This document shows positions 1 to 15,989 of a stretch of 18,060 nucleotides of DNA, piece after piece. This DNA comes from a virus (Duplodnaviria; Heunggongvirae; Uroviricota; Caudoviricetes), in IMG/VR virus record IMGVR_UViG_3300028048_000115, positions 1 to 18,060 of that record, one strand, 5' to 3'. Under the pieces are notes generated by a model that was not told where the DNA came from, searched no databases, and worked only from the letters and a program-made list of their open reading frames with translations. Positions within the stretch are counted from its first letter, which is position 1. Each line of letters begins with the position of its first letter. The translations under genes were made by a program, and so were the position numbers.

Positions 1-315
1 ACAAATATTATCCAAGCTCTCAGGTCTGTTCTAAATGTGGAGAAAGGCATCCAGAAATGAAAGATGTTACCAATCGTACACTAAAGTGTAAATGTGGTAA
101 TATTATTGATAGAGATTATAATTCAGCAATTAATATTTTAAAATTCGGTGAGACTGTTGTTTACAACAAATCTCACCAAACTCTTGGGAAGGACCTCTCG
201 GAGTATAAAGCCTTCAAACTTCAAGATTTTTGTGTTACACGCACAAGTCCAAATGTTTGAACTAGAATTAGTTTCTAAATGGAAGCATCTATCCTTCAGG
301 GTAGATGTAGGTCAC
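1..315 (+). mobile_element. Right part of an IS200/IS605-family (tnpB) element; right end at TCAC 312-315
   Basis: TnpB C-terminus followed by a typical right-end layout: GAAG, hairpin CATCTATCC-TTCA-GGGTAGATG (286-307), TAGG, TCAC. Left part lies outside the window. Confidence 0.8.
3..260 (+). CDS. tnpB: TnpB RNA-guided nuclease, C-terminal part (5' truncated by window edge)
   Basis: The frame of ORF 57..260 is open from nt 3: KYYPSSQVCSKCG...CKCGNIIDRDYNSAINI, the TnpB zinc ribbon plus the RuvC-III DRD-x-NA/SA-x-NI motif. Confidence 0.88.
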   Translation, partial: KYYPSSQVCSKCGERHPEMKDVTNRTLKCKCGNIIDRDYNSAINILKFGETVVYNKSHQTLGKDLSEYKAFKLQDFCVTRTSPNV

Positions 316-335
316 CTTGAAAATCCTCAGCTAAT
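185..335 (+). ncRNA. Putative TnpB omegaRNA (scaffold to 315, guide from the ~20 nt of 3' flank); 5' boundary approximate
   Basis: Established position for omegaRNA (overlaps the tnpB 3' end and right end). Visible stems: TTCAAAC 213-219 with GTTTGAA 255-261, TTGTG 230-234 with CACAA 242-246, and the terminal hairpin 286-307. Confidence 0.55.
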
Positions 336-849
336 TAAAGAGAATATCCCAATGGAAACTATGGGTTCCTTAATTGTTGGTGATTATGATTTGACCAACA
401 TCAATGATAGAAAATCTTTTATCAACGAACTTAAAGAAACTTGTACAATGTGCGATGATTTAGGCATTTCAAAAATGATGTTTGGAATGTCAAGATTTAG
501 AAAATCACCTAATTTAAAATTTTTTGAAGAACTTTATTATATATGTAAAGATAAAAATAAAATTCTTATGTATGAAGCAATTTCAAAAGACCCTTTTATT
601 TCTACTCACAAAGAATTAATTGAGTTTTCAAAACGTTTAGGAATTGATGGAATTCACGTTGATTTTGGAACCATTTTAAAAAACAATGAGGATTTTAAAG
701 AAATCGAAAAATCGTATAATATATTAAACATTCATTTCCCATTTGGAATGCAACCGAATATAAATCATAATATATCGCTTGAAAATTATTCTGGTACCAA
801 ATTGTCACAAAAGGAGATTGAAAATTGGTTAAAAAACCTAAAGCAATAG
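316..849 (+). CDS. Sugar-phosphate isomerase/epimerase-like TIM-barrel protein (xylose isomerase-like); 3' portion downstream of the IS, native N-terminus probably displaced
   Basis: Motifs TMGSLIVG, DDLGISKMMFG, LMYEA, GIHVDFG, NIHFP fit the AP-endonuclease-2/xylose isomerase fold. The part of the listed ORF 148..849 before 316 lies inside the IS end. Confidence 0.55.
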   Translation, partial: LENPQLIKENIPMETMGSLIVGDYDLTNINDRKSFINELKETCTMCDDLGISKMMFGMSRFRKSPNLKFFEELYYICKDKNKILMYEAISKDPFISTHKELIEFSKRLGIDGIHVDFGTILKNNEDFKEIEKSYNILNIHFPFGMQPNINHNISLENYSGTKLSQKEIENWLKNLKQ

Positions 850-1808
850 TTGTTGGCGCTGGTTTTTATGGGTTAATGCTTGCGACCTTTCTCAAAAAGA
901 AATACGATGTCTTGATTTTAGAGGAGCAAGCAGAACCAATGACTCAAGCATCCAATCTGTGCCAAATGCGTATTCATACTGGTATGATGTACCCCAGAAA
1001 TATTACTACTGCTATTTCCTGTTTAAAAACATTTAAACCATTTATGCTTAGATTTAAGGATGCTATCGTTGATGATTTTATAAGTCTGTATGCAGTCGCA
1101 AAGGACTCCAAAATTTCGGCATCCGATTTTTACAATGTTCAAAAAAGTTTAGGACAGAATATCAAAAAAGCAAAATTTGATATTTTTGATAACGTTCAGG
1201 AAGTTTTTGAATGTACCGAATTTACGTTTGACATTGAAATAATCAAGCAAACACTTTTAAATGAAATTGATAATGTTTTATATAATAAAAAGGTAACAAA
1301 CTTATACAAAAACACTTTAGTATGCTCTGACTCATCAATTTATATGTTTGATAAAGTCTTTTTGTGCTCTTATGCTGGAATAAATGACATTTTATTAAAT
1401 TCAGACTTGCCTATTTTTGAAAACTATAAAACCGAAATTTCAGAAAAGATTTATTTTAGGGATAATCTTGACAATGTTGCTCTTTGTGTGGTTGACGGAA
1501 ATTATTTTTCGTCTATGTGTTTACCTAAACGTTTCAATGGTCTTAAAACATTAACTGGTGCTGACTTAACCAACAATCTAATTTCAAAAACCTCTAATTA
1601 CGAAAAGGTTTTTGAAAGAGTTAGAAAGTATATTCCAGAAATTAAACTTGAGTACAAGTTTTCTGATTTTGGGGAAAAATGTTATATCCAAACGCCAGAT
1701 AATCAAAACCGAATCTGTCACGTTTTAAAAACTGACAATGTATATTCTATTTTGGGTGGTAAAATTAATAATGTCTTTGACTTATTTAAGGAGTTGAAGA
1801 ATGTTTAA
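825..1808 (+). CDS. FAD-dependent oxidoreductase (DAO-like)
   Basis: N-terminal GAGFYG Rossmann motif, ASNLCQMRIHTGMMYPR, C-terminal GGKI. TTG start 8 nt after AAGGAG (811-816). Confidence 0.8.
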   Translation: MVKKPKAIVVGAGFYGLMLATFLKKKYDVLILEEQAEPMTQASNLCQMRIHTGMMYPRNITTAISCLKTFKPFMLRFKDAIVDDFISLYAVAKDSKISASDFYNVQKSLGQNIKKAKFDIFDNVQEVFECTEFTFDIEIIKQTLLNEIDNVLYNKKVTNLYKNTLVCSDSSIYMFDKVFLCSYAGINDILLNSDLPIFENYKTEISEKIYFRDNLDNVALCVVDGNYFSSMCLPKRFNGLKTLTGADLTNNLISKTSNYEKVFERVRKYIPEIKLEYKFSDFGEKCYIQTPDNQNRICHVLKTDNVYSILGGKINNVFDLFKELKNV

Positions 1809-2529
1809 ATTTCCAAATAAATTCCTCAAGCAAAGATAACTGGTATTCCGATGAATATAACATTCCTGTGTTATTGTAGCATTTATCAAAGTTCTTTTTT
1901 AAATTGAAAGAGTAATTATATCCACATTTATTAAATACATTGATAATATCAGAAATCCAAACTGGTTCCGAAAATCTATTTAAAACCCTTATATCCTTTG
2001 CTTTTAACATATCAAAGTCGTGCTTAAGATTATCAAGACAGTACAACTGCATTGTATAATCTTCCTTGATATTTTCAAGAAAATGCCCATTCATTAAATC
2101 ATAGATAATATTTTTTCTTAGGTTATTGCCAAACAAGCAACCAATTCTCAATGTATAGCAATTAAAAAAATCCTGACAATACTTTTCAAAAATTAATCTA
2201 TGGGTTCCGTATTTTGTTGGCGGAATATCAAAAAAATTCTCATTGGAAAAGGTGTTTGCGTTGCAATCTTGAGAGGAAACCAAAAAGAAATTGTCACAGG
2301 TTATCTCTTTTAGCTTAGTTAGAATTTTGAGAATGTTCTGTAGGTCCTCAAGTGGTTTAGCATTAGCAATATATTTTACACCAGGAACACAGCAACAATA
2401 AACATTATCAAAATGTCCTTTTAAATCGGAAAAGTTCTTTGAGTTATAACACTCTAATCCTTCCTTGTCGAGTTGGTCGTACAAATTTGAACCAACAAAT
2501 CCAGTATAGCCTAATAACGCATTTCTCAT
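1786..2529 (-). CDS. NAD-dependent epimerase/dehydratase (extended SDR)
   Basis: ALLGYTGFVGSNL Rossmann motif and catalytic YxxxR-like KYGTHRLIFE. ATG at 2529 follows a GAGG RBS; the track's TTG at 2538 is less likely. Confidence 0.78.
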   Translation of the reverse strand: MRNALLGYTGFVGSNLYDQLDKEGLECYNSKNFSDLKGHFDNVYCCCVPGVKYIANAKPLEDLQNILKILTKLKEITCDNFFLVSSQDCNANTFSNENFFDIPPTKYGTHRLIFEKYCQDFFNCYTLRIGCLFGNNLRKNIIYDLMNGHFLENIKEDYTMQLYCLDNLKHDFDMLKAKDIRVLNRFSEPVWISDIINVFNKCGYNYSFNLKKNFDKCYNNTGMLYSSEYQLSLLEEFIWKFKHSSTP

Positions 2530-2601
2530 AAAATCCAATCCTCTTTTTTAGATTTCAAAAATTGGTTCCAAGTTTTTTAAAAAGTAAAAATACAACTTTC
2601 A

Positions 2602-3546
2602 TTAGAACCTCGCTAAAATACTTGCTCTTACGTTTTCTGCTTCAAGGATGGCACACACATCTCCACTTCCATTTATAGAACAGGAATTTTTAGAAACCAT
2701 TTCAATCTCAACGGTTTGGGAAATAAATGTGATTTTTGGATCCTTATCGTAATTTGTTTTGTACTTACAGGTGATAACGTTTCCTTCCTTGACCAATTCT
2801 AAAGGTTCAATATACAGTCTTGCTGAGTAATCAACCTCATCTTGGTTAAGAACCCTATGCTTTGGGGCAAATTGAGGTTTACCGTCAATAACTTTAAAAT
2901 CGGTTTCCTCTGTTTCTCTATAAGGAGTATTAAAATTCATTGTTAATTGCTTAATCAATGGATACTCTTTAATTGGTTGGAAAAGATAACCAGATAATGT
3001 AAACTCAGCACTAACTGTACAAATGTTCATAGATTTATCTTCAAATCCTTCGGTTTCTATTCCTATACTTCCTAACTGAATTGGAACTCTTGTAGGGGTG
3101 CTTTCGTTTTCAGCGTCAAAAACATCAATCGCCACATTTGGATTGAATTTTGGTGCTATTTCCTCAACAATCTGACATGCTTCGTTCATTCCTCTACACA
3201 GAATTTTAAGTGAATATACAAACGTATAAGCAACCGAATTGTATTGATATTCCTGGCTTTGAGGAAGTCTTAACTGATGAATCTTGTTGTATTTTGAAGA
3301 CTGTCTGCTTGTATCAACACTAAAACTTGATAATTCTAACACCGCTCTTGGGAGTACATTAAGATTTCCTGTAACAATTTGGTCTTCTGTTTGAGTCATT
3401 AAAATTTCCTTTTCCCTAAATTTATAGTGAATTGGAATTTTCTTTTGAATGATTTGCTCACGCTCATTTTTGTACTCAACTTCTAGGTTGCTAAAGAAAT
3501 TGAGCATAGCTAATGTATATTTTCTTATAGTGTTATGATGAAACAT
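2602..3546 (-). CDS. gp15: T4 gp15-like tail sheath stabilizer/completion protein
   Basis: N-terminal F...TIRKY...FFSNLEV, KIPIHY, LPRAVLEL, YNSVAY, CQIVEEIAPKFNP and F-x-LSGYLF resemble gp15-family proteins. A late promoter lies 31 nt upstream. Confidence 0.75.
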   Translation of the reverse strand: MFHHNTIRKYTLAMLNFFSNLEVEYKNEREQIIQKKIPIHYKFREKEILMTQTEDQIVTGNLNVLPRAVLELSSFSVDTSRQSSKYNKIHQLRLPQSQEYQYNSVAYTFVYSLKILCRGMNEACQIVEEIAPKFNPNVAIDVFDAENESTPTRVPIQLGSIGIETEGFEDKSMNICTVSAEFTLSGYLFQPIKEYPLIKQLTMNFNTPYRETEETDFKVIDGKPQFAPKHRVLNQDEVDYSARLYIEPLELVKEGNVITCKYKTNYDKDPKITFISQTVEIEMVSKNSCSINGSGDVCAILEAENVRASILARF

Positions 3547-3547
3547 A

Positions 3548-3575
3548 TTGACATTCTGTTAAAATTTACTATAAT
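3548..3575 (+). promoter_or_regulatory. Consensus sigma70-type (early) promoter for the topoisomerase operon
   Basis: TTGACA (3548-3553), 16-nt spacer, TATAAT (3570-3575). Confidence 0.8.
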
Positions 3576-3576
3576 G

Positions 3577-3588
3577 TATTTATAAATA
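3577..3588. promoter_or_regulatory. Overlapping divergent T4-type late promoters (TATAAATA on both strands)
   Basis: Palindrome TATTTATAAATA: TATAAATA on + at 3581-3588 and on - at 3584-3577. Confidence 0.6.
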
Positions 3589-3612
3589 AATGTTTTAAAG
3601 AGAAAAAAAAAT

Positions 3613-3771
3613 ATGTTTGAGATTATAGAAGAAAAAGAGGTTATTAAAAAAAATGTTGAAACCGCAGAAACGGATATTAAGGATCCTATCGAGAAAAAGA
3701 TTGAGGAACTTGAAAAGAAAATCAAGGACCTGGAAACACGTTTAGAAGAAATCGAATGGAGATTTGAGTAA
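3613..3771 (+). CDS. 52-aa acidic coiled-coil protein (MFEIIEEKEV...LEEIEWRFE), not in the ORF track
   Basis: Open frame between the promoter and gp39, heptad pattern IEEKIEELEKKIKDLETRLEEI-like, and its stop overlaps the gp39 ATG (TAATG). Confidence 0.7.
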   Translation: MFEIIEEKEVIKKNVETAETDIKDPIEKKIEELEKKIKDLETRLEEIEWRFE

Positions 3772-5291
3772 TGGAAAATTACCTTAAAAAGACCTCACGT
3801 GAGCATATTCTTGAAAGACCAAATATGTACATTGGTGCTAACAATCTTGTTAAGTCCAATGAATACGTTTTGATCAACGACTCCCGCATTGGTATCAAAG
3901 AAGTCGAGTATGTTCCTGGGCTGCTTAAAATCATCAATGAAATTATTGACAATTCCGTTGATATTGCAATCAAGACGGGTTTTAAAGGTTGTAATGAAAT
4001 TTCCGTAAAAATGTACCCAGACTACGTGGAAGTTGTAGATAATGGACCTGGTATTCCTGTAAAGAAAAACACCGACGGGGAGTGGATCCCATTTGTGTGT
4101 TGGGGTTATGCAATGTCTGGTTCCAATTTCGGAAATGACCAAAACAGAACTCAAATTGGTATGAACGGCGTTGGTTCTTACTGCACTAATGTTTGGTCCA
4201 AGAAGTTTACTGGTATTTCTGATGACGGGGAAAACCGTTATGAGATTACCTTTAAAGATAATGCTAGTACCTTTGTTGATACCGTTAAAAAGTCCGTAGG
4301 ACATGGAGTTTCAGTAAAATTCTATCCTGACTTAGAAAGATTTGGATTAGAGAAAATCACTCAAGAACACATTGACCTAATTAAGCAAAGACTTGTAAAT
4401 CTGAATGTAACATTTCCTGAAATCACTTTTAAATTTAACGGAAAAAAGATAGGTATTACTTCTTTTAAGAAGTACATCAAACTTTTTGGTGACCAATACG
4501 AAGTTTTTGAAACCGAAAATTATCAGTTTGCAATTTTACCATCGGACACAGATGAATTCCAACAGTTTAGTTATGTAAACGGACTTAACATCAAAGACGG
4601 TGGAACCCACATTGATATTATCAGTTCTTACGTTTCTAATGGTATTAGGGACAAGTTAATCAGAAAGTACAAAACCTTAAAGCCAGCCGATATTAAGAAC
4701 AAACTTATGGTGGTTGCCTTTATCAAGAATTTTGCAAATCCAAAATTTAACTCACAGACTAAAGAAAAGATTACCAATACCACAGGTGAAATGAATGCCT
4801 ATTTTGGTGATAGTTCTTGGGAACCAATCATTAAGTCTGTTTTAAAAAATTCTGCCATCATTGACCCTATCGTTGATGTCTTCAAAATCAAGGAAGAGTT
4901 AAAGCGTAAAGCAGAAATGAAGGCAATTAGTAAACCTAAGAAAATCAAGAATGACAAATATGTTCCTGCAAATAAAGAAAATAAGTATCTAATGATTACC
5001 GAAGGTGAATCAGCCGCAGGTTCATTAATGCCAACTTTTGGAATGGAAGAGTGCGGTTATTATATGTTGAAAGGTAAACCATTAAATGCTTGGGACGTTT
5101 CTCAGCAGAAATTCACTTCCAATAAAGAATTATCTGATCTGTATAATATTATTAAAAATACAACTCACGAATCACCTGAAGAAGATGGCGACTGGTATGA
5201 AATAGAAATAGATGGCAAAATGCAAATAGTTAATGAGAATGACGAAATCTTTTATAAAGGTTCTTGGAAATTAGTTAAGGATTTACTATAA
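3771..5291 (+). CDS. gp39: Type II topoisomerase large subunit (GHKL ATPase, transducer, N-terminal half of TOPRIM), T4 gp39-like
   Basis: EHILERPNMYIG, EIIDNSVD, DNGPGIP, GMNGVG, ITEGESA, LKGKPLN. Ends before the DxD motif and carries a 43-aa extra tail. Confidence 0.95.
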   Translation: MENYLKKTSREHILERPNMYIGANNLVKSNEYVLINDSRIGIKEVEYVPGLLKIINEIIDNSVDIAIKTGFKGCNEISVKMYPDYVEVVDNGPGIPVKKNTDGEWIPFVCWGYAMSGSNFGNDQNRTQIGMNGVGSYCTNVWSKKFTGISDDGENRYEITFKDNASTFVDTVKKSVGHGVSVKFYPDLERFGLEKITQEHIDLIKQRLVNLNVTFPEITFKFNGKKIGITSFKKYIKLFGDQYEVFETENYQFAILPSDTDEFQQFSYVNGLNIKDGGTHIDIISSYVSNGIRDKLIRKYKTLKPADIKNKLMVVAFIKNFANPKFNSQTKEKITNTTGEMNAYFGDSSWEPIIKSVLKNSAIIDPIVDVFKIKEELKRKAEMKAISKPKKIKNDKYVPANKENKYLMITEGESAAGSLMPTFGMEECGYYMLKGKPLNAWDVSQQKFTSNKELSDLYNIIKNTTHESPEEDGDWYEIEIDGKMQIVNENDEIFYKGSWKLVKDLL

Positions 5292-6279
5292 TGTTGCATT
5301 ATGTTTATAGATTAACAGATACAAATCCTAGAGGTGATCTTAAACATTATATAGGAAAAAGGTCCTCAAAATATATTGATATTGGTAAAGAATATTTTAC
5401 TTCATCAAAAATTTTAAATGAATATTTTAGACACAATGTAAAACAGTTTAAAATAAAAGTTGTCAAAATTTTTAATACAAGTGCCGAAGCATTAATGTTC
5501 GAAAAACAATATTTAAATAGAGTTAAAGCATCCAAATCACCTCTTTTTTATAACAGATGTAATTCCGGTAGTAATGGCCGAAATGACAATGCAGGTATTG
5601 TTCACGTTCTTTTAAAAGAAAATGGTTTACCAATATCTGTATCTTGCGAAGAATACTATTCTCACCAAGAAAAATATATTCCTCTAAATAAAGGAAAAAC
5701 AATTTATAGAGATTCAAAAGGAAATTTGGTTCATTGTACCAAAGAATATGCTAAGGAAATAATTTAGTCGGTTTGAATTATGGATTTGTTTATACTAAAG
5801 ATAAAAACGGAAATAAAGTAAAAGTTTCAAAAGAATATTATAATTCTCATAAAGATGAATTTGAATTTAGAGAAAAAAGAATCATGGCATACAATATTAA
5901 AACTAATGAGAACGTATGCGTAACAAAAGAAGAATTTGAAAATAACGAAAATTTAAAAGGAATGTATGCCAAATATCAACGTGAATATAAACAATGTCCT
6001 TATTGTAATAATATGATTTCTGTTCAAAATTATGATAGACATATTTCAACATATAAAAACAGATATTATTGGGTATCTGATGGGGAAAATATTTTTAAAT
6101 GTAGGCAAGATGTTTATTGGTTGCATTATAAAAAAGATTATGTTATACTTAATAATATTAATGATCATCATAAATCATTAAATAATAATTATGTCCCATT
6201 AAATGGAAAATTGTATCACATTAGATATGTTGCAAAAATTAGAAAAAATTGTTATATAGGTAAAGAATATGAAAATTAA
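5291..6279 (+). pseudogene. Free-standing GIY-YIG (Seg-like) homing endonuclease, frameshifted near 5755-5760
   Basis: YVY...HYIG, YFTSSK, EALMFE...L, LFYN catalytic domain followed by repeated G-x-V-x-x-K/R-D/E-x-x-G...V-S/T-x-EEY/F modules that continue in ORF 5773..6279. One extra A in AAGGAAAT joins the two frames. Confidence 0.75.
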
Positions 6280-6814
6280 TAAATTAAAAACAATCACAGA
6301 TGAACAATTATCAGCATATAAGAATAATCCTAATATTAGACGAAGAAAAGTATTAAAGAGTGGATATCAATATATTGTTTATGCAACCGATCAGGATTTA
6401 GACTGACCCTTTGGGGGGGGTCAGTATAATTAAGGAAAAAAAGACGGCATACACATCCGTTCGTTACTTAGTGGGTTTATTCACAAGTATTTACCTGAAT
6501 ACGAAGGCCGTGTAGGTATTCTTGATACACCTGTTGTCGCATTTTTCAAGAATGATAAAATTCAGCATTGGATTTACAATCTTAATGAAGATATTGAAAT
6601 AAAGAAAGGCGAAAAGTCATTTTATTTCAAAGGTCTTGGTTCTTGGGACAAAAACGATTTACAGGAAGTTATTAAGGTCGATGGAATTGAAAAGATGATA
6701 AGTATCATCAATTTTGAAAACGGTGAGGAAAATCTTAATGATTGGTTAGGTTCTGATAGTGCTCCTAGAAAGAAGTTTATTCTTGAAAATACTTTTAGTA
6801 TAGCAGACGCTTAG
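6269..6814 (+). CDS. gp60: Type II topoisomerase small subunit, T4 gp60-like: 45 codons (6269-6403), 42-nt coding gap (6404-6445), 122 codons (6446-6811); predicted 167 aa by translational bypass
   Basis: Manual translation gives MKINKL...YIVYATDQDLD | GIHIRSLL...LDTPVV...YFKGLGSW...RKKFI, supplying the TOPRIM DxDG and KGLG motifs missing from gp39. Confidence 0.9.
6401..6445 (+). other. Putative programmed ribosomal bypass (hop) element
   Basis: Take-off GAC 6401-6403, stop TGA 6404-6406, hairpin ACTGACCC 6402-6409 with GGGTCAGT 6418-6425, second in-frame stop TAA 6431-6433, AAGGA 6432-6436, landing GAC 6443-6445. Confidence 0.8.
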
Positions 6815-6830
6815 TGTGATTTTAGTCACA
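6815..6830. promoter_or_regulatory. CRP-family-like operator
   Basis: Exact TGTGA-N6-TCACA, intergenic. Confidence 0.45.
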
Positions 6831-6847
6831 TTTTGAAATTAAAATTG

Positions 6848-6876
6848 TTGTTTTCCTTATTATAAAGATCTATATT
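6848..6876 (+). promoter_or_regulatory. Putative phage promoter for rtcB
   Basis: TTGTTT-17-TATATT, within the same AAAAT..GTTGTTTTC(C)TTAT context as the four copies at 11381-11670. Confidence 0.55.
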
Positions 6877-6911
6877 ATACATAGTAAGAAATGACTTTTT
6901 ATGGAGTTAAG

Positions 6912-8015
6912 ATGAGTTCTACCATTACATTGACTGGTTCTACCATTACATTGACTGGAAAATATGCAGATGCATTTTTTCATACCAAAAATGTTGACCA
7001 GAATACACTTTTTCAAGTCAAAGCGCTGATTGACTGTGACCTTTCAGAGGGTAGTGTTATCCACATAATGCCTGATTGCCACACAGGCAAAGGTTGCACC
7101 ATTGGAACTACAATGACTATCAATGATAAATTGTGTCCTAACCTTGTGGGTGTTGATGTGGGGTGCGCCATTTTATGCTTAAAGGTACAGGGAGATTTTT
7201 CAGTTGATGACTTCTTGGATGCTTGTGAGAAAGTCCCAGCTGGTGTAGGTAAATACAACTCGGAAATGAAGGAGTTTGATGACCTTAAGAATTTATCTTT
7301 TAAGTTAGATAACCCAGATCAAATTTTGCGTTCTATCGGATCGTTAGGTAGTGGTAACCACTTCATTGAATTAAACGAAGACGAAGACGGTAACCGTTAT
7401 ATTGTTATTCATAGTGGTTCAAGAAATCTAGGAATTCAAGTATGCAGTCACCACATGAAAATTGCAAAGCAAACCAATCCAAGAGGTGACCTGTCTTTCT
7501 TAACAGGAACCAATTTTGATGACTATCTGAATGATATGCGGATTTGTCAAACCTATGCTCAGAAAAATCGTTTAGAGATTGGTGACACCATTCTAAGAAA
7601 TTTAGGAAATACTAGAATAGTTGGTGCATTTGTAACAGTTCACAATTACATAGATTTTGATGATAAAATTCTAAGAAAGGGTGCTATTTCCTGTAGTAAG
7701 GGTAAAAAAGTTCTAATTCCATTTAATATGAGAGATGGAAGTGTAATCGCAATTGGTAAGGGAAACCCTGATTGGAATTTCTCTGGTCCACATGGTGCAG
7801 GTAGAATTTTATCACGTACCCAGGCAAGGAAGAGTTTAACTCTTGAAGATTTCCAAAACGCTATGACTGGAATTTCTTCAAGGACTGTATGTCAGAAAAC
7901 AATTGATGAGGCTCCACAAGTTTATAAGGATGCTAAAGAAATTGAGAATTTAATTTCGGAAACAGTAGAAGTTCAAAAGCACTTGAAGGTTGTTGCAAAT
8001 TTCAAGGGAATTTAA
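6912..8015 (+). CDS. rtcB: RtcB-family RNA ligase
   Basis: MPDCHTGKG, VGVDVGC, GSLGSGNHFIE, IHSGSRNLG, VHNY, RKGA, PHGAGR, DEAPQVYK. ATG 6912 follows GGAG (6903-6906). Confidence 0.93.
   Translation: MSSTITLTGSTITLTGKYADAFFHTKNVDQNTLFQVKALIDCDLSEGSVIHIMPDCHTGKGCTIGTTMTINDKLCPNLVGVDVGCAILCLKVQGDFSVDDFLDACEKVPAGVGKYNSEMKEFDDLKNLSFKLDNPDQILRSIGSLGSGNHFIELNEDEDGNRYIVIHSGSRNLGIQVCSHHMKIAKQTNPRGDLSFLTGTNFDDYLNDMRICQTYAQKNRLEIGDTILRNLGNTRIVGAFVTVHNYIDFDDKILRKGAISCSKGKKVLIPFNMRDGSVIAIGKGNPDWNFSGPHGAGRILSRTQARKSLTLEDFQNAMTGISSRTVCQKTIDEAPQVYKDAKEIENLISETVEVQKHLKVVANFKGI
6916..6957. repeat. Perfect 21-bp tandem duplication (STITLTG twice)
   Basis: GTTCTACCATTACATTGACTG at 6916-6936 and 6937-6957. Confidence 0.95.
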
Positions 8016-8039
8016 AATGTACTAAAGGTTGTAGCAGAT

Positions 8040-8525
8040 ATGAATTTTTTGATCGAAAATGCAGATGAAATTTTAAAAACCCAAGAAGCAGAACGTGAAA
8101 AACTTTGGAAGTTTGATGAACTTTGTAAGGAAATGTTAAAGGAGCGAGGGAGCAATTATGTAACCATAAGGAAGTTTTGTATAAAGAACTTCAGAAGTGC
8201 TCCTTTATGGGACATTGAAAAGGTTTTTACACTTTTAAAATCTCAAGATCCAACACTTGATAAAGAGTGGAGTTTAAACTACATAGCATATTTTAAAAAA
8301 TATTATGAACAGTTTCCTAATGATAACCTTTGGAATAAGGAAATGATAAATCATTATAATAAGTTATCAGACGGAGATAAAGCATATTACAAAGTTCTTT
8401 CAGACTTAAAAAAATCAATCAAAAAAAATTTTAAAAGGTATACAGTTAAAGATCTTTGTGATATAATAAAGAAAAATGAAAAATTTAGACAAGCAATGTT
8501 AATAAACTTAATGGAAACTTGGTAA
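8040..8525 (+). CDS. Hypothetical protein (161 aa)
   Basis: Long ORF tightly packed between rtcB and gp52 (TAATG overlap); no motif recognised. Confidence 0.75.
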   Translation: MNFLIENADEILKTQEAEREKLWKFDELCKEMLKERGSNYVTIRKFCIKNFRSAPLWDIEKVFTLLKSQDPTLDKEWSLNYIAYFKKYYEQFPNDNLWNKEMINHYNKLSDGDKAYYKVLSDLKKSIKKNFKRYTVKDLCDIIKKNEKFRQAMLINLMETW

Positions 8526-9832
8526 TGCAGGAAATTTCAATCAAAGATTTACTCAATGGACAGTTAGTTAATTATGCAAGCTATGACAATATCCGAAAAA
8601 TCGGAAGTGCGATTGACGGATTAAAGAACGCGGCTAGAAAGGTTATCTTTACTGTTCACGAAAAAAAGATTAAAGATAAAACAAAGGTTTTACAGTTATC
8701 AAATAAGTGTGCGGAATATGCAGACTATTTACACGGTTCCTTAGATGGTGTTGTCGTAACATTGGGCCAAGATTTTGCTGGAACCAATAATATTCCTTTA
8801 ATTCAGAAATTTGGTAACTTTGGAACAAGATGTATTCAGGAGGCATCAGCACCAAGATACATTTTTGCAAAAGGTTCCGATGCTCTGTTTGAACTGTTTA
8901 AGTACGAAGATGACGAAATCCTAGACCAACAGTTTTTTGAGGGTTCCCGAATTGAACCTAAGTTTTATGTCCCAACTTTGCCAATGCTTTTGGTGAACGG
9001 AAGTGAGGGCGTATCTAGTGGTTTTGCTCAAAAGATTTTACCTAGAAATCCAGAAAAACTAAAGCAATATATCTTAGAAAAGTTGTCTGGAAAGGAACCT
9101 TCAACTGAATTATTAAACCCTTGGATCAAGAATTTTAACGGCTCTTTTGAACAGGGTGAGGAACCAAACAAGTGGATTGTCAAGGGAAAGATTGAACACG
9201 TAAAAGGAAATGAATATCTGATTTCTGAAATTCCATTTACCTATGACTTAAAGAGTTATGTTAAGGTGCTCGATGATTTATCAGATAAGAAGAATATTAT
9301 CAGATATTCAAATGAGAGTGACGGTGAAAACACCTTAAAATTCAGAGTCACCCTCCCAAGAGGAATTGATACATCTGAAGACGCCTTGTTAGAGCGTTTA
9401 AAACTTTTAAAACCAATTTCAGAAAACTATACAAGTATTGATGATAATCTCAAGGTTAGAGAATTTAAAAATTCCAAAGAAATTATTGACTTTTATATAG
9501 ATATAAAATTAAAATATTTAAATAAGAGAAAGATATTTTTAATTGAAAAAATCAATACAGAATTAAGCATTTTAAAGATGAAGTCAAAATTTTTAAATGA
9601 ATATATTTCTGGGTCCATCAAAATTCAAAATGTTTCAAAGTCTGAAATTGAAAAACAGTTAGTAGATTATTTAAAGGTTGATGGAAGTTATAACTATCTT
9701 ATCGGAATGCCAATTTACTCTTTAACTTCAGAAAAACTTGAGGAGTTAGAAAAGACAATTGCTCAAACTGAAAAGACTCTTTCAAAAACCCAGAAAACAA
9801 GTATCGAAAAAATGTGGAGCTCTGAACTTTGA
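8525..9832 (+). CDS. gp52: Type II topoisomerase medium subunit (GyrA/ParC-like), T4 gp52-like
   Basis: DGLKNAARKV, YLHG, GNFG, ASAPRYI (catalytic Tyr), PMLLVNGSEGVSSGFA. Start placed at the TAATG overlap. Confidence 0.95.
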   Translation: MQEISIKDLLNGQLVNYASYDNIRKIGSAIDGLKNAARKVIFTVHEKKIKDKTKVLQLSNKCAEYADYLHGSLDGVVVTLGQDFAGTNNIPLIQKFGNFGTRCIQEASAPRYIFAKGSDALFELFKYEDDEILDQQFFEGSRIEPKFYVPTLPMLLVNGSEGVSSGFAQKILPRNPEKLKQYILEKLSGKEPSTELLNPWIKNFNGSFEQGEEPNKWIVKGKIEHVKGNEYLISEIPFTYDLKSYVKVLDDLSDKKNIIRYSNESDGENTLKFRVTLPRGIDTSEDALLERLKLLKPISENYTSIDDNLKVREFKNSKEIIDFYIDIKLKYLNKRKIFLIEKINTELSILKMKSKFLNEYISGSIKIQNVSKSEIEKQLVDYLKVDGSYNYLIGMPIYSLTSEKLEELEKTIAQTEKTLSKTQKTSIEKMWSSEL

Positions 9833-10359
9833 TAATAACTATTTCAGGTCCCGCAAGAAGTGGCAAAGACTATATTGCGGGTCTTTTAAAAGAAAGATTA
9901 AATAATGCTAAGTTATATACTTTATCAAGCACTTTAAAGGAATATCTATGTGAGATTTTTTCTTTAAGTTTAGAGGAGCTTGATAGATTTAAAAACTCAA
10001 CGGAACCATTCACAGTAAATGGAACCACAATGAGAACTATTTTGCAGAAATTTGGAACCGAAATTTTTGTGAATAAGGTCGATAAGTTATTTTGGGTTAA
10101 TAAGATAAAAGAAAAGATAATTGCTGATAATGTTGATTACGCAATTATTACGGATGCTCGATTTCTCCACGAAATTGAGAGTTTTAATGGTGCTTTAAAA
10201 ATAAAGGTGATTGCAGATGACACGATAGCAGAAAATGAACACATATCAGAACGGGAATTGGATAATTATAAGTTTGATTATCTGATTGATAATAGAAATA
10301 AACCAGATTTAACAAAGGTTATTGACAAACTGGTTAAAAAAATTAAGGAAAATAAATGA
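9829..10359 (+). CDS. Deoxynucleoside monophosphate kinase (T4 gp1-like)
   Basis: P-loop ISGPARSGKD, R-x-ILQKFGTE, ITDARF, HISE, FDY-x-IDN. Confidence 0.85.
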   Translation: MIITISGPARSGKDYIAGLLKERLNNAKLYTLSSTLKEYLCEIFSLSLEELDRFKNSTEPFTVNGTTMRTILQKFGTEIFVNKVDKLFWVNKIKEKIIADNVDYAIITDARFLHEIESFNGALKIKVIADDTIAENEHISERELDNYKFDYLIDNRNKPDLTKVIDKLVKKIKENK

Positions 10360-10829
10360 TTACTTGTATTTTTTCTTGCGATTTAAACGGCGTAATTGGC
10401 GTAAATGGCACTCTTCCTTGGGATATTCCTTCAGACTTAAAGAATTTTAAAAAGGAAACCACAGGAAAGACTGTGATTATGGGCAGAAAGACTTTTGAGA
10501 GCATTGGAAAAGAACTTCCTGACCGTAGAAATATCATCATCACAACACACCCTGTTAAGGACGTTGAATGTTATTCAAGTATTAAAGAAGCATTAGCTAA
10601 AATTGATGGTGATGTTTACCTCATTGGCGGTAAGGGAATTATTGAGGAGGGATTTGAATTAGCAGACAGACTGTTAATCACTTCCGTTCCAATTGTTGTG
10701 CCTGATTATGAGGGTCCTTTAGTTAAGGTTGATATGTCAAAGAAGAAAGGTTTTGACATTGTTTCAATTGACCACGTTGAAAACCCAAATGAGATGGACT
10801 ATTATCTTATGGAATATAGGAGAAAGTAA
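10356..10829 (+). CDS. frd: Dihydrofolate reductase
   Basis: VIGVNGTLPW, DLKNFK, VIMGRKTFESIG, LPDRRNII, LIGGKGI. Confidence 0.95.
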   Translation: MITCIFSCDLNGVIGVNGTLPWDIPSDLKNFKKETTGKTVIMGRKTFESIGKELPDRRNIIITTHPVKDVECYSSIKEALAKIDGDVYLIGGKGIIEEGFELADRLLITSVPIVVPDYEGPLVKVDMSKKKGFDIVSIDHVENPNEMDYYLMEYRRK

Positions 10830-11290
10830 TGAAGTTTAAGCAGATTTTAGAAAAGGAAGAAACACCTGTTTCAACTGAAAAAGACGTTCCTGTAGCAGAA
10901 GTTGAGGACGCTAGTGTTATTGAACCATCAGAAGTTTCAGAAAACAAAGAAGCAATTGCAAAACCTGAAGAAGTCAAAGACTACGATGTGTTTGCTCGTC
11001 TCCGTGATGGTCTTGAAACTGATGAATGGATTTATATCATTAAACAGAACGATGATTGGGTAGCCAAGAAGATGATTAATGGTTCAATGCAGGATATGAT
11101 TTTACCAAATTCTCCTGACGAAACCGACGCAAAGTCGGTCTTATGTGCTGTTGAGAAAGTTTTACAAACTCCTGATATTCAGTACATTAGAACTATGGAA
11201 GAACCAATCATTCCAGATGTTCCATCTTCAGAGGAACCTACTGAAAAAGAAGAACCCGAAATGATTTCGGATTATACAACTTACGTCTAA
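10829..11290 (+). CDS. Acidic hypothetical protein (153 aa)
   Basis: ORF coupled to DHFR by TAATG and followed by a terminator; E/P-rich termini. Confidence 0.75.
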   Translation: MKFKQILEKEETPVSTEKDVPVAEVEDASVIEPSEVSENKEAIAKPEEVKDYDVFARLRDGLETDEWIYIIKQNDDWVAKKMINGSMQDMILPNSPDETDAKSVLCAVEKVLQTPDIQYIRTMEEPIIPDVPSSEEPTEKEEPEMISDYTTYV

Positions 11291-11296
11291 AAATAA

Positions 11297-11321
11297 GGGG
11301 ACTTTTTAAAAGTCCCTTTTT
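11297..11321 (+). terminator. Intrinsic terminator
   Basis: GGGACTT-TTTAA-AAGTCCC followed by TTTTT, just after the 11290 stop. Confidence 0.75.
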
Positions 11322-11524
11322 ATATAAATTAAATCACAAATAAGGAACTTTTAAAAGTTCCTTTTTAACAATTAAAAAATGTTGTTTTCTTATATATAAT
11401 TAATTAAAATTAAATCACATAAATTCTTATATAAATTAAATCACAAATAATGAACTTTTAAAAGTTCCTTTTTAACAATTAAAAAAATGTTGTTTTCTTA
11501 TATATAATTAATTAAAATTAAATT
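11320..11524. repeat. Two near-identical ~95-100-bp direct repeats (period 107), each with a stem-loop and a promoter
   Basis: Copies start at 11320 and 11427. Copy 1 contains the perfect palindrome AAGGAACTTTTAAAAGTTCCTT (11342-11363); copy 2 has one G>T change and one more A in an A-run. Confidence 0.9.
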
Positions 11525-11670
11525 CTTATATATAATTAATTTGAATTAAATCACATAAAATAGTTGTTTTCTTATAATAAACATATTATAATTAATATGT
11601 GAAATGAAAACGCAAATGTGTTTTTAAATCACATAAAATAGTTGTTTTCTTATAATAAACATATTATAAT
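11382..11670 (+). promoter_or_regulatory. Four tandem sigma70-like promoters
   Basis: TTGTTT-17-TAAAAT at 11382-11410 and 11490-11518; TTGTTT-17-TATAAT at 11564-11592 and 11642-11670. Confidence 0.65.
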
Positions 11671-11678
11671 TAATATGT
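11547..11678. repeat. Two identical 54-bp direct repeats (period 78)
   Basis: TAAATCACATAAAATAGTTGTTTTCTTATAATAAACATATTATAATTAATATGT at 11547-11600 and 11625-11678. Confidence 0.95.
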
Positions 11679-11698
11679 AAAAAAGAGAGGAACAGAAA

Positions 11699-11947
11699 AT
11701 GATTTACGAATTAACTCCTATTTATGACGCCCGTCAGTCCTTCTATGCAAAGGCATTAGTTCAGGTTTTTGAGGGTGTTGAAGTTCTGTTAAGTTATACA
11801 ATGCCAGTTGCTAAGTATGAAAACGGTGTTTTAAAACTCCTTGAAATGTGGGACTATTCTCCAACAACTTTAAGACACGTCAAGGAATTTGCAAAACAGC
11901 ACAATATTTTCGTTAACACAAAGAAAGATTTATTACAGTATGTTTGA
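11699..11947 (+). CDS. Small phage protein of unknown function (82 aa)
   Basis: RBS GAGAGGA. The pattern SFYAKA...LLSY...VA...SPTTLRHVKEF resembles small phage proteins of unknown function. Confidence 0.8.
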   Translation: MIYELTPIYDARQSFYAKALVQVFEGVEVLLSYTMPVAKYENGVLKLLEMWDYSPTTLRHVKEFAKQHNIFVNTKKDLLQYV

Positions 11948-13394
11948 GGAAATTCTTTTAAAGTCCCTAGTCTATGACGGGACTTTTTTTAACAAATGCT
12001 TTAACCTCTTAAAGTCCGATTATTTTAAGACAATTGGTAACAAAGAGGTTTTTAAACTTCTTAAAAAATACTACGCAGAGTACAAAGAACGACCATCGGA
12101 AGTTGCTCTTGTAACAATGGTCAAAGACGTTCCAAATGCGGAACTTAGAAAGACTATTGTGGAGTCCTTAAAAAATATCTCAAAAACGGATTTAAACTCT
12201 AACACAGATTTTATGTGCAATGAAACCGTCAGATTTATCAAGGATTCCATCTATTACAAGTCACTTGAAATAGGTTCCGAAGGTCTGATGAACAAAGACG
12301 AAAGCAAAATCAAAAAGGCACAATCGCTTGTGGAAGAAATGTCAAAGATTCAGATTGACAGCGATTTAGGACTTGATTTTGATGACATTAATGCTCAAAT
12401 TGAGTATTATTCAAAAAGAGAATTTGGAATTAAAACCCACTTAAAAACAGTCAACAAGCGTATTGGAAGTGGTTTTCTTCCTGGAACTCTTAACGTCATT
12501 TTGGCAGCCCAAGGTGTTGGTAAGTCATTACTGATGTGCGATTTTATTTCTGGTATGCTTCAAAATAATAAAAACGTTTTGATGGTGTCCCTTGAAATGT
12601 CTCCAAATGAGATGATGAAACGTATTCAAGCAAATGTTTTTGACATTGGTGTCAATACCTTTAGAGATCTATCAAAGACTGATGTTGAGATTTCCGCTCT
12701 TGAAAGAGCACCAACAACAAAAGATGATATTTTAAATGCTTATCAAAAGTACAAAATGCAGGGTTCCTGTGGAAAATTGTTTGTTAAGGAATATCCAGCG
12801 GGTTCGTTTAGTGCATTGATGTTAGCAGATTTAGTTGATAAATTCCGAGTTGAAAAAGGTATCACTTTTGATATAATCTTTATTGATTATTTAGGAATTA
12901 TGAAGTCTGATTTAGTGAGTGCAAATGCTGGTTTGTATTCTTATGTTAAGAGCATTTCTGAAGAAGTAAGAGCACAAGCAGTAAAACTTGGTGTTCCAAT
13001 TGTAAGTGCCTCACAGTTAAATCGTTCAGCAATCAACAAGGTTGACGGAGTTGATAACTCTGCGGTGTCCGATTCGTACGGTACAAATGCAACTGCTGAT
13101 TTAATGATGTTCATTCTCCAAAATGAAGCAATGAAAGAAAAATCAGAGGTCCTTGTTAAGTTCACAAAAAATCGTTATACAGGTATTACCGATAGTTTTA
13201 TGCTTGATATTGACTATCAGAAAATGAGATTTAGTGATCCAATCGGGGAAACCGATTTTAAGACAGTTGAGGACAAAAAGAATGCCGAACAGTTTGCAAA
13301 ATCGGAAATTAGAGAGATCCACAAAAAGGATGTCCAAATAGACAAAGCAGAAAAAATGACAACTGATGATATTTTATCAATGATAGGAATATAA
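11940..13394 (+). CDS. gp41: Replicative DnaB-family helicase (T4 gp41-like)
   Basis: Walker A AAQGVGKS, SLEMS, Walker B IFIDYLGI, ASQLNR, KNRY. ATG 11940 (MFEEILLK) overlaps the upstream gene; the track start 11889 is probably too early. Confidence 0.92.
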   Translation: MFEEILLKSLVYDGTFFNKCFNLLKSDYFKTIGNKEVFKLLKKYYAEYKERPSEVALVTMVKDVPNAELRKTIVESLKNISKTDLNSNTDFMCNETVRFIKDSIYYKSLEIGSEGLMNKDESKIKKAQSLVEEMSKIQIDSDLGLDFDDINAQIEYYSKREFGIKTHLKTVNKRIGSGFLPGTLNVILAAQGVGKSLLMCDFISGMLQNNKNVLMVSLEMSPNEMMKRIQANVFDIGVNTFRDLSKTDVEISALERAPTTKDDILNAYQKYKMQGSCGKLFVKEYPAGSFSALMLADLVDKFRVEKGITFDIIFIDYLGIMKSDLVSANAGLYSYVKSISEEVRAQAVKLGVPIVSASQLNRSAINKVDGVDNSAVSDSYGTNATADLMMFILQNEAMKEKSEVLVKFTKNRYTGITDSFMLDIDYQKMRFSDPIGETDFKTVEDKKNAEQFAKSEIREIHKKDVQIDKAEKMTTDDILSMIGI

Positions 13395-14129
13395 ATGATA
13401 GAACTTTATAATGGTGATTGTTTAGAAGTTATGGATTCCCTCATTGAAAAAGGAATTAAAGTCAATGCTATCATAACCGATCCTCCGTATGGATCTACAG
13501 CTTGCAAATGGGATTCTATAATTCCTTTTGATGAAATGTGGAAACGTCTTAATGCTTTGATAATTCCAAAAGGAAATATTGTTTTGTTTGGTAATGGTAT
13601 TTTTTCTTATAAGTTGGCATTATCCAATGAAAAAAGATTTAGATATGAACTTATTTGGAAAAAATCCAAATGCGGAAGTCCTTTGACAGCAAAATATATG
13701 CCATTGAAAAAACACGAGAATATTCTTGTTTTTGGTCAGAGTGCTAGCGTCTATAATCCTCAAATGACAGAAGGAACGCCTTATAAACGAAATTATACCC
13801 CAAACAAAATAAACAATATGGAGTATGGTATTGCTGGTGTTCAAACAGACAACAAAGGAACAAGATATCCTATAAGTATTCTTGATTTTCCACAAAAATG
13901 GAGAAGACAAGATCAACTCCATCCGACTCAAAAACCTGTTGAGCTGCTTGAATATCTGGTCAAAACATATTCTAATGAAAATGACCTAATTCTTGATTTC
14001 ACTATGGGTTCCGGTACTACAGGAGTTGCTTGTAAGAATTTAAACAGGCAATTTATAGGTATTGAACTAGATAAAAACTACTTTGAAATTGCAAAAAGTA
14101 GAATAGAGAATACGGTAGTAAATATATAA
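13395..14129 (+). CDS. N4/N6 DNA methyltransferase, beta class
   Basis: IITDPPYG precedes HPTQKP and LDFTMGSGTTG (catalytic motif before the SAM-binding motif). Confidence 0.93.
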   Translation: MIELYNGDCLEVMDSLIEKGIKVNAIITDPPYGSTACKWDSIIPFDEMWKRLNALIIPKGNIVLFGNGIFSYKLALSNEKRFRYELIWKKSKCGSPLTAKYMPLKKHENILVFGQSASVYNPQMTEGTPYKRNYTPNKINNMEYGIAGVQTDNKGTRYPISILDFPQKWRRQDQLHPTQKPVELLEYLVKTYSNENDLILDFTMGSGTTGVACKNLNRQFIGIELDKNYFEIAKSRIENTVVNI

Positions 14130-14149
14130 ATTAAAGAGAATTTAGAAGA

Positions 14150-14975
14150 ATGGTAAGATCTCCAATAGTTTATAGTGGTAGTAAATTTTCGTTGATGAAA
14201 CAATTACTGCCGTTATTTCCAAAAAATATAGATACTTTTTATGATGTCTTTTGTGGCAGCTGTACAGTATCTTTGAATGTTAATGCCAATCATTATAAGT
14301 GTAATGATATTTGTAAACCGTTAATAGACCTTTATAATTATTTTAAGACTGAATATCAAGAAAACAAATTACAAGAATATATTGAAAAATATGATCTTTA
14401 TAATATAAAAGATGAAGCTTTTTATAATATAAGGACTCTATATAATTCATCAAAAGACCCTTTGCTTCTGTATATTCTTTCAAGATGTTCTTTTAATCAT
14501 ATGATAAGGTTTAATTCCAAAAATGAGTTTAATGCAGGATTTGGAAATTTGTTTAAAATAAACGGGAAGCATCACTATGATTTAGACATTTTTAAATTCA
14601 AAAACAAAGATTTTTACAGTCAGAATTTTGATGATTTTTTTAAATGCTTTTGAATATAAGGAAAATGACTTTATTTATTTAGATCCTCCTTATCTGATTA
14701 CTAATGCAAATTACAATTCTGGTTGGACAGAAAAGGAAGAGCTGAAACTACAAGATTTTTGCAGTCAGACAAGTGCTAAATTTGGAATTTCAAATGTTTT
14801 TGAACACAAAGGACGTTCAAATGAATTGCTTAAGGAATTTGCAAAGGAATACAATGTATATTATCTAAATAAATCTTATAATGCTTGGAACAATTCGAGC
14901 AAAAATAAATCAGACAAAACAGTTGAAGTGTATATATGTAATTATGAAATTACTGAAGGTTTGGAAAAATGGTAG
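14150..14975 (+). pseudogene. dam: Dam-like (D12/alpha class) adenine methyltransferase split by a +1 frameshift at T7 (14635-14641)
   Basis: YSGSK, YDVFCGS, FNHMIRFN...FNAGFG in frame 1; FIYLDPPY, FGISN, EVYICNY in frame 2. A T6 run would give the continuous QNFDDFLNAFEYKENDFIYLDPPY. Confidence 0.85.
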
Positions 14976-15022
14976 AATTGCATAACGGCGATCGCCTTGA
15001 GGTAATGAACCAACAAGTGTAG
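14969..15022 (+). pseudogene. 17-codon relic of a second beta-class methyltransferase
   Basis: MVELHNGDRLEVMNQQV* versus MIELYNGDCLEVMDSL at 13395. Confidence 0.65.
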
Positions 15023-15038
15023 TTTTAAAAGGAAAAGT

Positions 15039-15248
15039 ATGACCCTAAATGAATTAATAAGAAGTTCCGAAATAACATTTGATAAAGTTATTTTGCGAAC
15101 AAAAGAACATAAAGAAATTAACATAACAAATGAATTGGAAAAGTACAAACCATTTGATGTTATTTCCTTTAATATCACTTCAGAAACTCACCAAAATTAT
15201 GAAACGGTAGATCGTGAATATACTCTATATGTGAAACTTTTGTGGTAA
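15039..15248 (+). CDS. Hypothetical protein (69 aa)
   Basis: ATG preceded by AAAGGAAAAG; same strand as neighbours. Confidence 0.7.
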   Translation: MTLNELIRSSEITFDKVILRTKEHKEINITNELEKYKPFDVISFNITSETHQNYETVDREYTLYVKLLW

Positions 15249-15253
15249 CCAAA

Positions 15254-15275
15254 AAATGTGATTTAGATCGCTTTT
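15254..15275. promoter_or_regulatory. CRP-like operator
   Basis: AAATGTGATTTAGATCGCTTTT matches 19 of 22 positions of the CRP consensus AAATGTGATCTAGATCACATTT. Confidence 0.45.
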
Positions 15276-15309
15276 CTGAATAATTATTCAGTATTTTTTA
15301 CGCTTTTTG

Positions 15310-15380
15310 AAAAGTCTTTATAAATCAATAACTTAGTTAAAGATCTATTTTTATTAAGTCTTTGATTTGTAAAGACTTTT
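15310..15380. repeat. 19-bp inverted repeat with a 33-nt loop
   Basis: AAAAGTCTTTATAAATCAA (15310-15328) and TTGATTTGTAAAGACTTTT (15362-15380), one T-G pair. Confidence 0.85.
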
Positions 15381-15410
15381 TTATTTTAGGCAAAAAATTT
15401 AAAAAATATA

Positions 15411-15439
15411 TTGAAATTGTATATAAAATATTTTATAAT
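15411..15439 (+). promoter_or_regulatory. Strong sigma70-type promoter
   Basis: TTGAAA-17-TATAAT. Confidence 0.75.
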
Positions 15440-15469
15440 TAATTTGTAAGTTAAAGAGAGAAAAGAAAA

Positions 15470-15607
15470 ATGTTAAAATTATTTTTTGCTGGAATTTGTT
15501 GTACAATGTTTGGTTATGAATTTTTTATGAGTGGAGACATTAAACAAATGCTTGCGTGTTTAGTTTCTGCAATTGCAATGATTTTTGTTGGAAATGAGAT
15601 GATTTAA
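15470..15607 (+). CDS. 45-aa small membrane protein with two hydrophobic segments, not in the ORF track
   Basis: MLKLFFAGICCTMFGYEFFMSGDIKQMLACLVSAIAMIFVGNEMI; first ORF after the promoter, purine-rich leader. Confidence 0.65.
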   Translation: MLKLFFAGICCTMFGYEFFMSGDIKQMLACLVSAIAMIFVGNEMI

Positions 15608-15623
15608 AAAGGAAGGAAATAAA

Positions 15624-15902
15624 ATGTTTAACGTTGTAGCTAATGATGAGACCCAGGTCGTTTTAAAAGTAACTGTTAAGGATAATCTTCAGATTGCCTT
15701 AAACCCATACATTCAGAGTGATTATGATTATATCACCGTTACAAAGGGACCAAATCACACTCTAACAGTCATCAAAAAGGATGGAACAACATTTTCTTTT
15801 GTTTGGGGAGTAGGTGGATTTACACTTATTTCTGATAATTTAGAACGCTTAAGAAAGGAAGTTGTAAAATTCATTGAGTCACAAAATATTTCTTTAAGAT
15901 AA
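15624..15902 (+). CDS. Hypothetical protein (92 aa)
   Basis: Strong RBS AAGGAAGGA; no motif recognised. Confidence 0.75.
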   Translation: MFNVVANDETQVVLKVTVKDNLQIALNPYIQSDYDYITVTKGPNHTLTVIKKDGTTFSFVWGVGGFTLISDNLERLRKEVVKFIESQNISLR

Positions 15903-15935
15903 GCAATATGTGATCATTTGTTTCACCTAACACAA

Positions 15936-15955
15936 AAGGAGCTGAAAAGCTCCTT
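15936..15955. terminator. Hairpin, probable intrinsic terminator
   Basis: AAGGAGCT-GAAA-AGCTCCTT. The U-tract is better on the minus strand and only TT on plus. Confidence 0.55.
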
Positions 15956-15962
15956 ATAAATA
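15955..15962 (+). promoter_or_regulatory. T4-type late promoter TATAAATA
   Basis: Exact T4 late consensus 27 nt upstream of the ATG at 15990. Confidence 0.55.
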
Positions 15963-15989
15963 TTTTGTGTTAATTAAAAGGTGATCTAA

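Follow-up and report, generated by a model that had tools for sequence, protein, structure and literature searches.

The window analysed here (18,060 nt, positions 1 to 18,060 of the IMG/VR virus record IMGVR_UViG_3300028048_000115) contains the gene for a topoisomerase II large subunit, which is split into two open reading frames with a homing endonuclease gene adjoining (Table 1). ORF1 resembles gene 39 of phage T4 and matches phrog_543 (E 1e-135) as well as the Pfam families DNA_gyraseB and HATPase_c. ORF2 resembles gene 60 and is itself interrupted. It opens with the ATG at 6269, and its first 45 codons, read directly, end with ...YIVYATDQDLD, where a stop codon follows; the homologous sequence resumes past a short coding gap. 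The interruption is located in the TOPRIM DxDxDG motif of the split subunit, and the reading frames carry CTE and NTE tails. Joining of the two coding segments of ORF2 gives a product of 167 aa (45 + 122). The gap is measured from the stop codon through the landing codon, the same convention as for the annotated 50-nt feature of T4.

Table 1. Positions of the split topoisomerase gene, the endonuclease and the elements of the predicted bypass cassette in the window.
Feature	Position	Strand	Remark
ORF1, gene 39-like	3771..5291	+	Covers the N-terminal ~463 residues of the topoisomerase II large subunit; the C-terminal tail belongs to the element
ORF1 C-terminal extension (CTE)	5161..5291	+	5' end of the element near 5160; tail without counterpart in unsplit L024
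GIY-YIG homing endonuclease, N-terminal half	5291..5767	+	158 aa; matches residues 1-154 of the 315-aa enzyme that is intact in L031 (42% identity)
GIY-YIG endonuclease, C-terminal half	5773..6279	+	Other frame; aligns with residues 160-314 of the same L031 protein at 40% identity
ORF2 first coding segment, gene 60-like	6269..6403	+	45 codons; a unique leader joined to a stretch with homology to the topoisomerase sequence that was replaced (YQYIVYATDQDLD)
Take-off codon GAC (Asp45)	6401..6403	+	Read directly; corresponds to D477 of unsplit L024
Take-off stem-loop	6402..6425	+	Arms 6402-6411/6416-6425; contains take-off codon and stop
UGA stop, A site at take-off	6404..6406	+	Read directly; UGA or UAG in all relatives
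42-nt coding gap	6404..6445	+	3' end of the mobile element; without counterpart in unsplit homologs
Internal Shine-Dalgarno-like AAGGA	6432..6436	+	6 nt (six A) 5' of the landing codon
Landing codon GAC	6443..6445	+	Read directly; GAC or GAU in relatives, both tRNA-Asp
ORF2 second coding segment	6446..6814	+	122 codons and TAG 6812-6814; opens GIHIRSLL...

Comparison with related phages that carry an unsplit gene allowed us to place the gap within the protein. ORF1 is 64% identical to residues 2-461 of the 599-aa large subunit encoded by the unsplit locus L024 and then diverges from it. The two segments of ORF2 abut on the gp60-like profile phrog_7229, with the first covering positions 8-47 and the second positions 48-170 (E 6.5e-22). 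Moreover, residues 465-477 of L024 align to residues 33-45 of ORF2, and residues 478-598 align to the second segment with 69% identity, where D477 corresponds to the take-off residue D45 and G478 to the first residue past the landing codon. Since this alignment is collinear, the protein is restored exactly, neither longer nor shorter by a residue, when D45 is joined to the glycine at 6446. The gap is absent in the unsplit loci L020, L023, L024 and L025 and in Vibrio phage Va1, and in Va1, L020, L023 and L025 the motif reads ...DLDG.H... uninterrupted. The nearest cultured relatives of the second segment are the Vibrio phages Va1 and phiTY18 (58% identity), followed by Campylobacter phages. A search with a three-sequence alignment retrieved four loci in IMG/VR, two of them unsplit, and three homologs in the metagenome collection, all unsplit, while the second-segment protein used singly found no match in IMG/VR. 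Searching cultured-phage DNA with positions 5700-7000 yielded just weak matches to Campylobacter phages inside the second segment.

A related phage from the same kind of sample (record 17 of run X4, a 14-kb contig) has no gap over window positions 6374-6500. Here, 27 nt replace positions 6403-6471, which is exactly 42 nt fewer, and the sequence reads D-G-F-H-I-R-G-L-L-N. This contig may represent an uninvaded allele.

The GAC codons at 6401 and 6443 would be read by the same tRNA, as in gene 60-type cassettes, and the take-off codon is GAC in all 13 of 13 cassette copies examined. A second in-frame stop, TAA, is present within the gap at 6431-6433. The AAGGA motif lies in an A/U-rich stretch, and its 6-nt spacing falls in the range of 5-7 nt 5' of the landing codon that is characteristic of an internal Shine-Dalgarno-like element; relatives keep AAGG at a spacing of 5-6 nt. 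A stable stem-loop with the take-off codon and the stop inside it is likewise a feature of gene 60-type cassettes. In the window it consists of 10 bp, namely 8 Watson-Crick and 2 U-G pairs, with a UGGG loop, and folds at -15.4 kcal/mol (z = -3.46), with 0 of 200 shuffles folding as well. When a wider stretch of 91 nt spanning the gap was folded, the result did not stand out from shuffles (z = -1.0); significance is limited to the hairpin itself. In relatives the folding energies range from -13.8 to -15.4 kcal/mol, and the take-off hairpin of T4 folds at -14.7 kcal/mol. All cells of the relatives' hairpins (100%) are paired, with two compensatory pairs and one U-G wobble. Both compensatory pairs arise from a switch of the stop codon from UGA to UAG, which is accompanied by a change from UCA to CUA in the 3' arm. 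The loop of the window is the G8 variant, and the UUUG tetraloop form is commoner among the copies; as the cassette alignment made with MAFFT had the G4 insertion in the wrong place, the register of the commoner form was used to count the CCC/GGG pairs. In an initial annotation of this DNA, the two GAC codons, TGA, TAA, hairpin, AAGGA and 167-aa product had been described, together with an 8-bp stem extendable by two G-U pairs. Direct reading confirmed each of these elements, and the extended stem is the 10-bp hairpin reported above with its z value of -3.46.

Two DNA-pattern scans of IMG/VR mostly returned chance matches in unrelated GC-rich contigs, and only L013, L016 and L031 were found to be real cassettes. 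The gaps of the four IMG/VR cassettes measure 42, 42, 37 and 41 nt. An exact look-up of the 45-aa leader identified 22 contigs. Among the leader-sharing contigs examined (about 10 of the 22), the gap was 42 nt with the G8 loop in four cases, 37 nt with the UUUG loop in six and 36 nt in one, and the landing codon was GAC or GAU. Thus, even strains about 98% identical to the window differ in gap length (36, 37 or 42 nt). Contigs of four public runs differ from the window by the absence of four G's at 6413, by the absence of one or two A's at 6436 and by C>T at 6445. The sites of length variation are the homopolymers at 6413-6420 (G4 or G8) and 6437-6442 (five to seven A, or AAAATT). As the gap lengths vary while take-off and landing stay GAC/GAC or GAC/GAU, it is the matching of the codons that is conserved, and not the frame. 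The G8 form was found again in contigs of at least three other samples and is hence not a one-off assembly error. In all, the gap was assembled in at least six samples and 22 contigs, and because these assemblies are independent it must be regarded as real DNA.

Our data further show that the cassette forms the 3' end of a mobile element. Compared with L060, which has a different topoisomerase backbone, the identity of the window rises from 60-83% to 93-98% at about position 5161. Over two stretches, 5161-5291 and about 6230-6409, nucleotide identity to L060, L066 and L067 reaches 93-100%. Elsewhere it is only 50-86%, with 60-83% for the part of ORF1 before 5161 and 46-86% beyond the landing codon, and identity to the L060 backbone collapses directly past the gap. 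Because identity jumps at these borders, the ORF1 tail forms a single element together with the endonuclease, ORF2 leader and gap, which spans about 5160-6445 and ends at the landing codon. At least two diverged topoisomerase backbones carry this element; the shared leader and cassette are 97-100% identical between rumen-phage backbones (at least two) whose proteins are only about 73% identical.

The first half of the endonuclease matches the homing endonuclease family phrog_314 and, weakly and under the curated cut-offs, the Pfam families SegE_GIY-YIG and GIY-YIG. The gene is broken by a frameshift near 5765-5773, as is that of L059, and is hence likely a pseudogene. The endonuclease is a single intact ORF of 329 aa in L062, L065 and L068. 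In L060 it is internally deleted, with the first codons and the last ~90 nt left, and in L016 ORF2 begins 3 nt past the end of ORF1 with no endonuclease ORF between. Upstream of the endonuclease of L031 (positions 300-2007; IMGVR_UViG_3300028048_000060, from the same metagenome), we observed a weak match to Intein_splicing. An intein in one metagenomic ORF1 has been reported previously (10.1101/2022.08.31.505936). With regard to backbones, endonuclease alleles, gap lengths, G4 versus G8 and GAC versus GAU landing codons, we see an even chance that the clade 9 element is currently mobile and naturally polymorphic. If all alleles bypass efficiently, they would provide a natural allelic series, and a gene 60-type hop would tolerate changes of loop and length with an Asp tRNA.

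The contig on which the cassette is found (G000, 87,673 nt) has a GC content of 31.8%. ARAGORN detected no tRNA genes on this 87.7-kb contig, hence no tRNA-Asp of its own is visible on the fragment. A gene for an RtcB RNA ligase (6891-8015) lies between ORF2 and a 161-aa ORF followed by a gp52-like topoisomerase subunit. L060, L066 and L067 have these neighbours immediately behind ORF2 and lack the ligase gene at this place, so that RtcB looks like a lineage-specific insertion. Upstream, and encoded on the other strand, is a gp15-like tail sheath stabiliser, an arrangement shared with Va1.

Overall, we propose that the locus carries a gene 60-type programmed translational bypass cassette, which forms the 3' end of a homing-endonuclease element that, in a T4-like rumen phage, has split the gene for the topoisomerase II large subunit. 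We assign this reading a probability of roughly 0.88. The mechanism is modelled on T4 by homology, and compatibility of the host ribosome and tRNA-Asp is assumed. The 45 codons of the first segment would be translated, and the nascent leader (YKNNPNIRRR...) would prime the ribosome. Once peptidyl-tRNA-Asp occupies the GAC at 6401 and the A site holds UGA, the take-off hairpin would form and the anticodon would be released. The ribosome would then traverse the A/U-rich gap without decoding, until AAGGA binds the 16S rRNA's anti-Shine-Dalgarno sequence by pairing and brings the GAC at 6443 into the P site, for possible re-pairing by the same tRNA. Translation would restart at GGC 6446, and the resulting 167-aa subunit would have its DxDxDG TOPRIM motif intact. 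Such a hop predicts the junction peptide ...ATDQDLDGIHIR (as ...YIVYATDQDLDGIHIR). The leader YKNNPNIRRR, a putative nascent-peptide signal, can be aligned to YKLQNNVRRS of T4 (KYKLQNNVRRSIKSSS, the nascent-peptide region) with 11 of 30 residues identical (E 0.005).

Genes 39, 52 and 60 of T4 are DNA-delay genes and not strictly essential. As a T4-type topoisomerase is not strictly essential, the persistence of the cassette in a lineage is weaker proof of function than it would be for an essential gene. One could imagine a decaying gene, where only the 45-aa peptide is made, the 122 downstream codons are an untranslated remnant and the phage lacks an intact large subunit or uses the host gyrase. 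The viability of T4 topoisomerase mutants, which are DNA-delay mutants, and the frameshift that has already disrupted the adjoining endonuclease would fit such a scenario. Yet the second segment is open over 122 codons wherever the contig extends far enough and 57-69% identical to unsplit homologs. Differences between strains in the two coding segments are mostly synonymous (8 of 11 in the frames defined by the hop), and both flanks of the gap are evidently under purifying selection. The matched codons, the covariation in the hairpin and the Shine-Dalgarno spacing are also kept across backbones. Given this conservation, we regard decay as improbable.

A second possibility is an enzyme made of three pieces, with the second segment translated separately from a non-canonical start downstream of AAGGA. 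The motif and its A-rich spacer do resemble a ribosome-binding site, SD-like motifs precede 41 of the 64 long ORFs of the contig versus a background of 14%, and an ATA is present at 6449. Nevertheless, the earliest in-frame ATG, GTG or TTG of the second segment is codon 84, and the ATA is replaced by ATC in close strains and by ATT or TTT in relatives. Separate initiation would also leave unexplained why the codon 6 nt past the Shine-Dalgarno motif always matches the take-off codon and why the hairpin covaries with the stop. This makes a three-piece enzyme very improbable in our opinion.

That the gap is taken out of the mRNA, as a small intron or through cleavage followed by religation (for instance by an RtcB ligase), appears more improbable still. 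It is true that RtcB is encoded directly downstream of ORF2, but the gene is missing beside the same cassette in L060, L066 and L067 and beside L031. A functional link of RtcB to the cassette was dropped, as RtcB is not conserved next to it. The gap, at 42 nt and with two in-frame stops, is far below the size of group I or II introns and contains neither the conserved catalytic RNA structure of a self-splicing intron nor the in-frame Hint domain of an intein, and an Rfam search gave no family match. In two RNA libraries, each from a different study, the contigs still have the gap and no joined form was seen among them, although these contigs may stem from contamination by DNA and rare spliced forms are lost in contigs. 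The mRNA of T4 also retains its gap.

That the 14 gap codons are translated by in-frame read-through or under an altered genetic code, or that the gap is an assembly artefact, has next to no probability: the gap of the window happens to be a multiple of three and stop-codon reassignment is known in some gut phages, but both UGA and UAA would need decoding, TAA, TAG and TGA each terminate long ORFs on the contig, 14 extra residues would fall within DxDxDG, and the gap was assembled independently in many samples. Moreover, close relatives have gaps of 36, 37 and 41 nt. As linear decoding across the family is impossible with gaps of 36, 37, 41 and 42 nt, this series refutes in-frame read-through.

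Programmed bypassing is among the most extreme departures from collinear decoding, and for decades gene 60 of T4 was its sole phage example. The cassette of the window is a natural variant, differing by its Asp codon, its UGA, its shorter gap and its endonuclease, and is therefore useful for testing which features of the T4 mechanism are required. It also matters for annotation, since gene callers miss the 167-aa topoisomerase subunit.

The cassette discussed here is already known as a predicted bypass and is not a discovery. Manning and Atkins have described dozens of homologous cassettes in a computational study (bioRxiv, 2 September 2022, 10.1101/2022.08.31.505936). The entry 'MGS7' in their Table S2 belongs to clade 9 and derives from a bovine rumen metagenome (Lethbridge; Ga0256405_100009377, IMGVR_UViG_3300028048_000115). 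Its ORF2 nucleotides, including the gap, are letter-for-letter identical to the window, the joined 167-aa protein is identical too, and the row notes the frameshift in the endonuclease. The same sequence is named MGS7 in Table S2 and clx9_nMG10 in File S3, so these labels do not correspond. The authors found GAC/GAC take-off at the upstream Asp in Aeromonas phages and in most metagenomic sequences, along with shorter gaps, and a UGA stop in three metagenomic sequences. Hairpins of clades 9 and 10 were reported to have one more C/G pair and a UUUG loop (CCC-UUUG-GGG tip), and GIY-YIG endonucleases replace MobA in the metagenomic members of these clades. A comparison of clade 9 with a parental sequence or between backbones is absent from the preprint (all 10.1101/2022.08.31.505936). 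In the literature searched, we found no peer-reviewed version of it and no experiment, by protein or ribosome data, on any Asp-codon cassette. Beyond the preprint, our analysis adds minor detail, namely the strain gaps of 36 and 37 nt, the borders of the element and its second backbone, the allele states of the endonuclease and the RNA-library contigs.

In the light of this earlier work, the initial annotation needs to be revised in several points. It had presented the element as a new bypass, while the identical sequence and protein already stand in Table S2 and File S3 of the preprint (10.1101/2022.08.31.505936), and its remark on the small number of known natural bypass elements is outdated. 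The differences from T4 that it listed are real and are known variants of one homologous cassette. In-frame spacing holds for the window but is incidental, as near-identical strains have gaps of 36 or 37 nt. To call the TOPRIM motif essential was an overstatement, T4 genes 39, 52 and 60 being DNA-delay genes. The proposed hop of tRNA-Asp from 6401 to 6443, giving a 167-aa subunit, is favoured by all of the comparative evidence obtained, and gene callers indeed report just the 45-aa ORF and fragments at ORF2. An assembly artefact, which it had named as a possible refutation, was not upheld in view of the same gap in at least six samples and 22 contigs.

The system most similar to the window is gene 60 of T4. 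The same gene is interrupted at the same site in the TOPRIM DxDxDG motif, with matched take-off and landing codons and a stop codon after take-off. An SD-like GAG is found 6 nt before the landing GGA in T4, and AAGGA 6 nt before the landing GAC in the window; the 9-mer AUAAUUAAG is located 8 nt before landing in both cassettes. The leader YKNNPNIRR aligns to YKLQNNVRR of T4 gp60 and may be a related nascent-peptide motif. In T4, with gene 39 and mobA, a homing endonuclease gene is likewise situated between the two topoisomerase ORFs. There are also clear differences. T4 takes off from the Gly codon GGA at codon 46, whereas the window would use the Asp codon GAC at codon 45, one codon upstream, and the stop is UAG in T4 versus UGA in the window. 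The gap comprises 50 nt in T4 and 42 nt in the window. The tip of the hairpin is CC-UUCG-GG in T4 and CCC-UUUG(GGGG)-GGG in the window, with the same architecture. T4 carries the HNH endonuclease MobA in contrast to the GIY-YIG enzyme of the window, and similarity to the T4 gp60 protein is low (33% identity, with only one 61-residue stretch of the second segment aligning). Judged by their sequences, the T4 and window cassettes are homologous and not convergent.

Elements of the 'byp' type cause ribosomes to skip a non-coding insert between matching codons. They occur in the mitochondria of Magnusiomyces capitatus, and candidate bypassing has been described for Streptomyces phage (PMC10732093). 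Sequences, genes and hosts are unrelated in these cases, and they have no homology to the cassette of the window, which instead belongs with gene 60 of T4.
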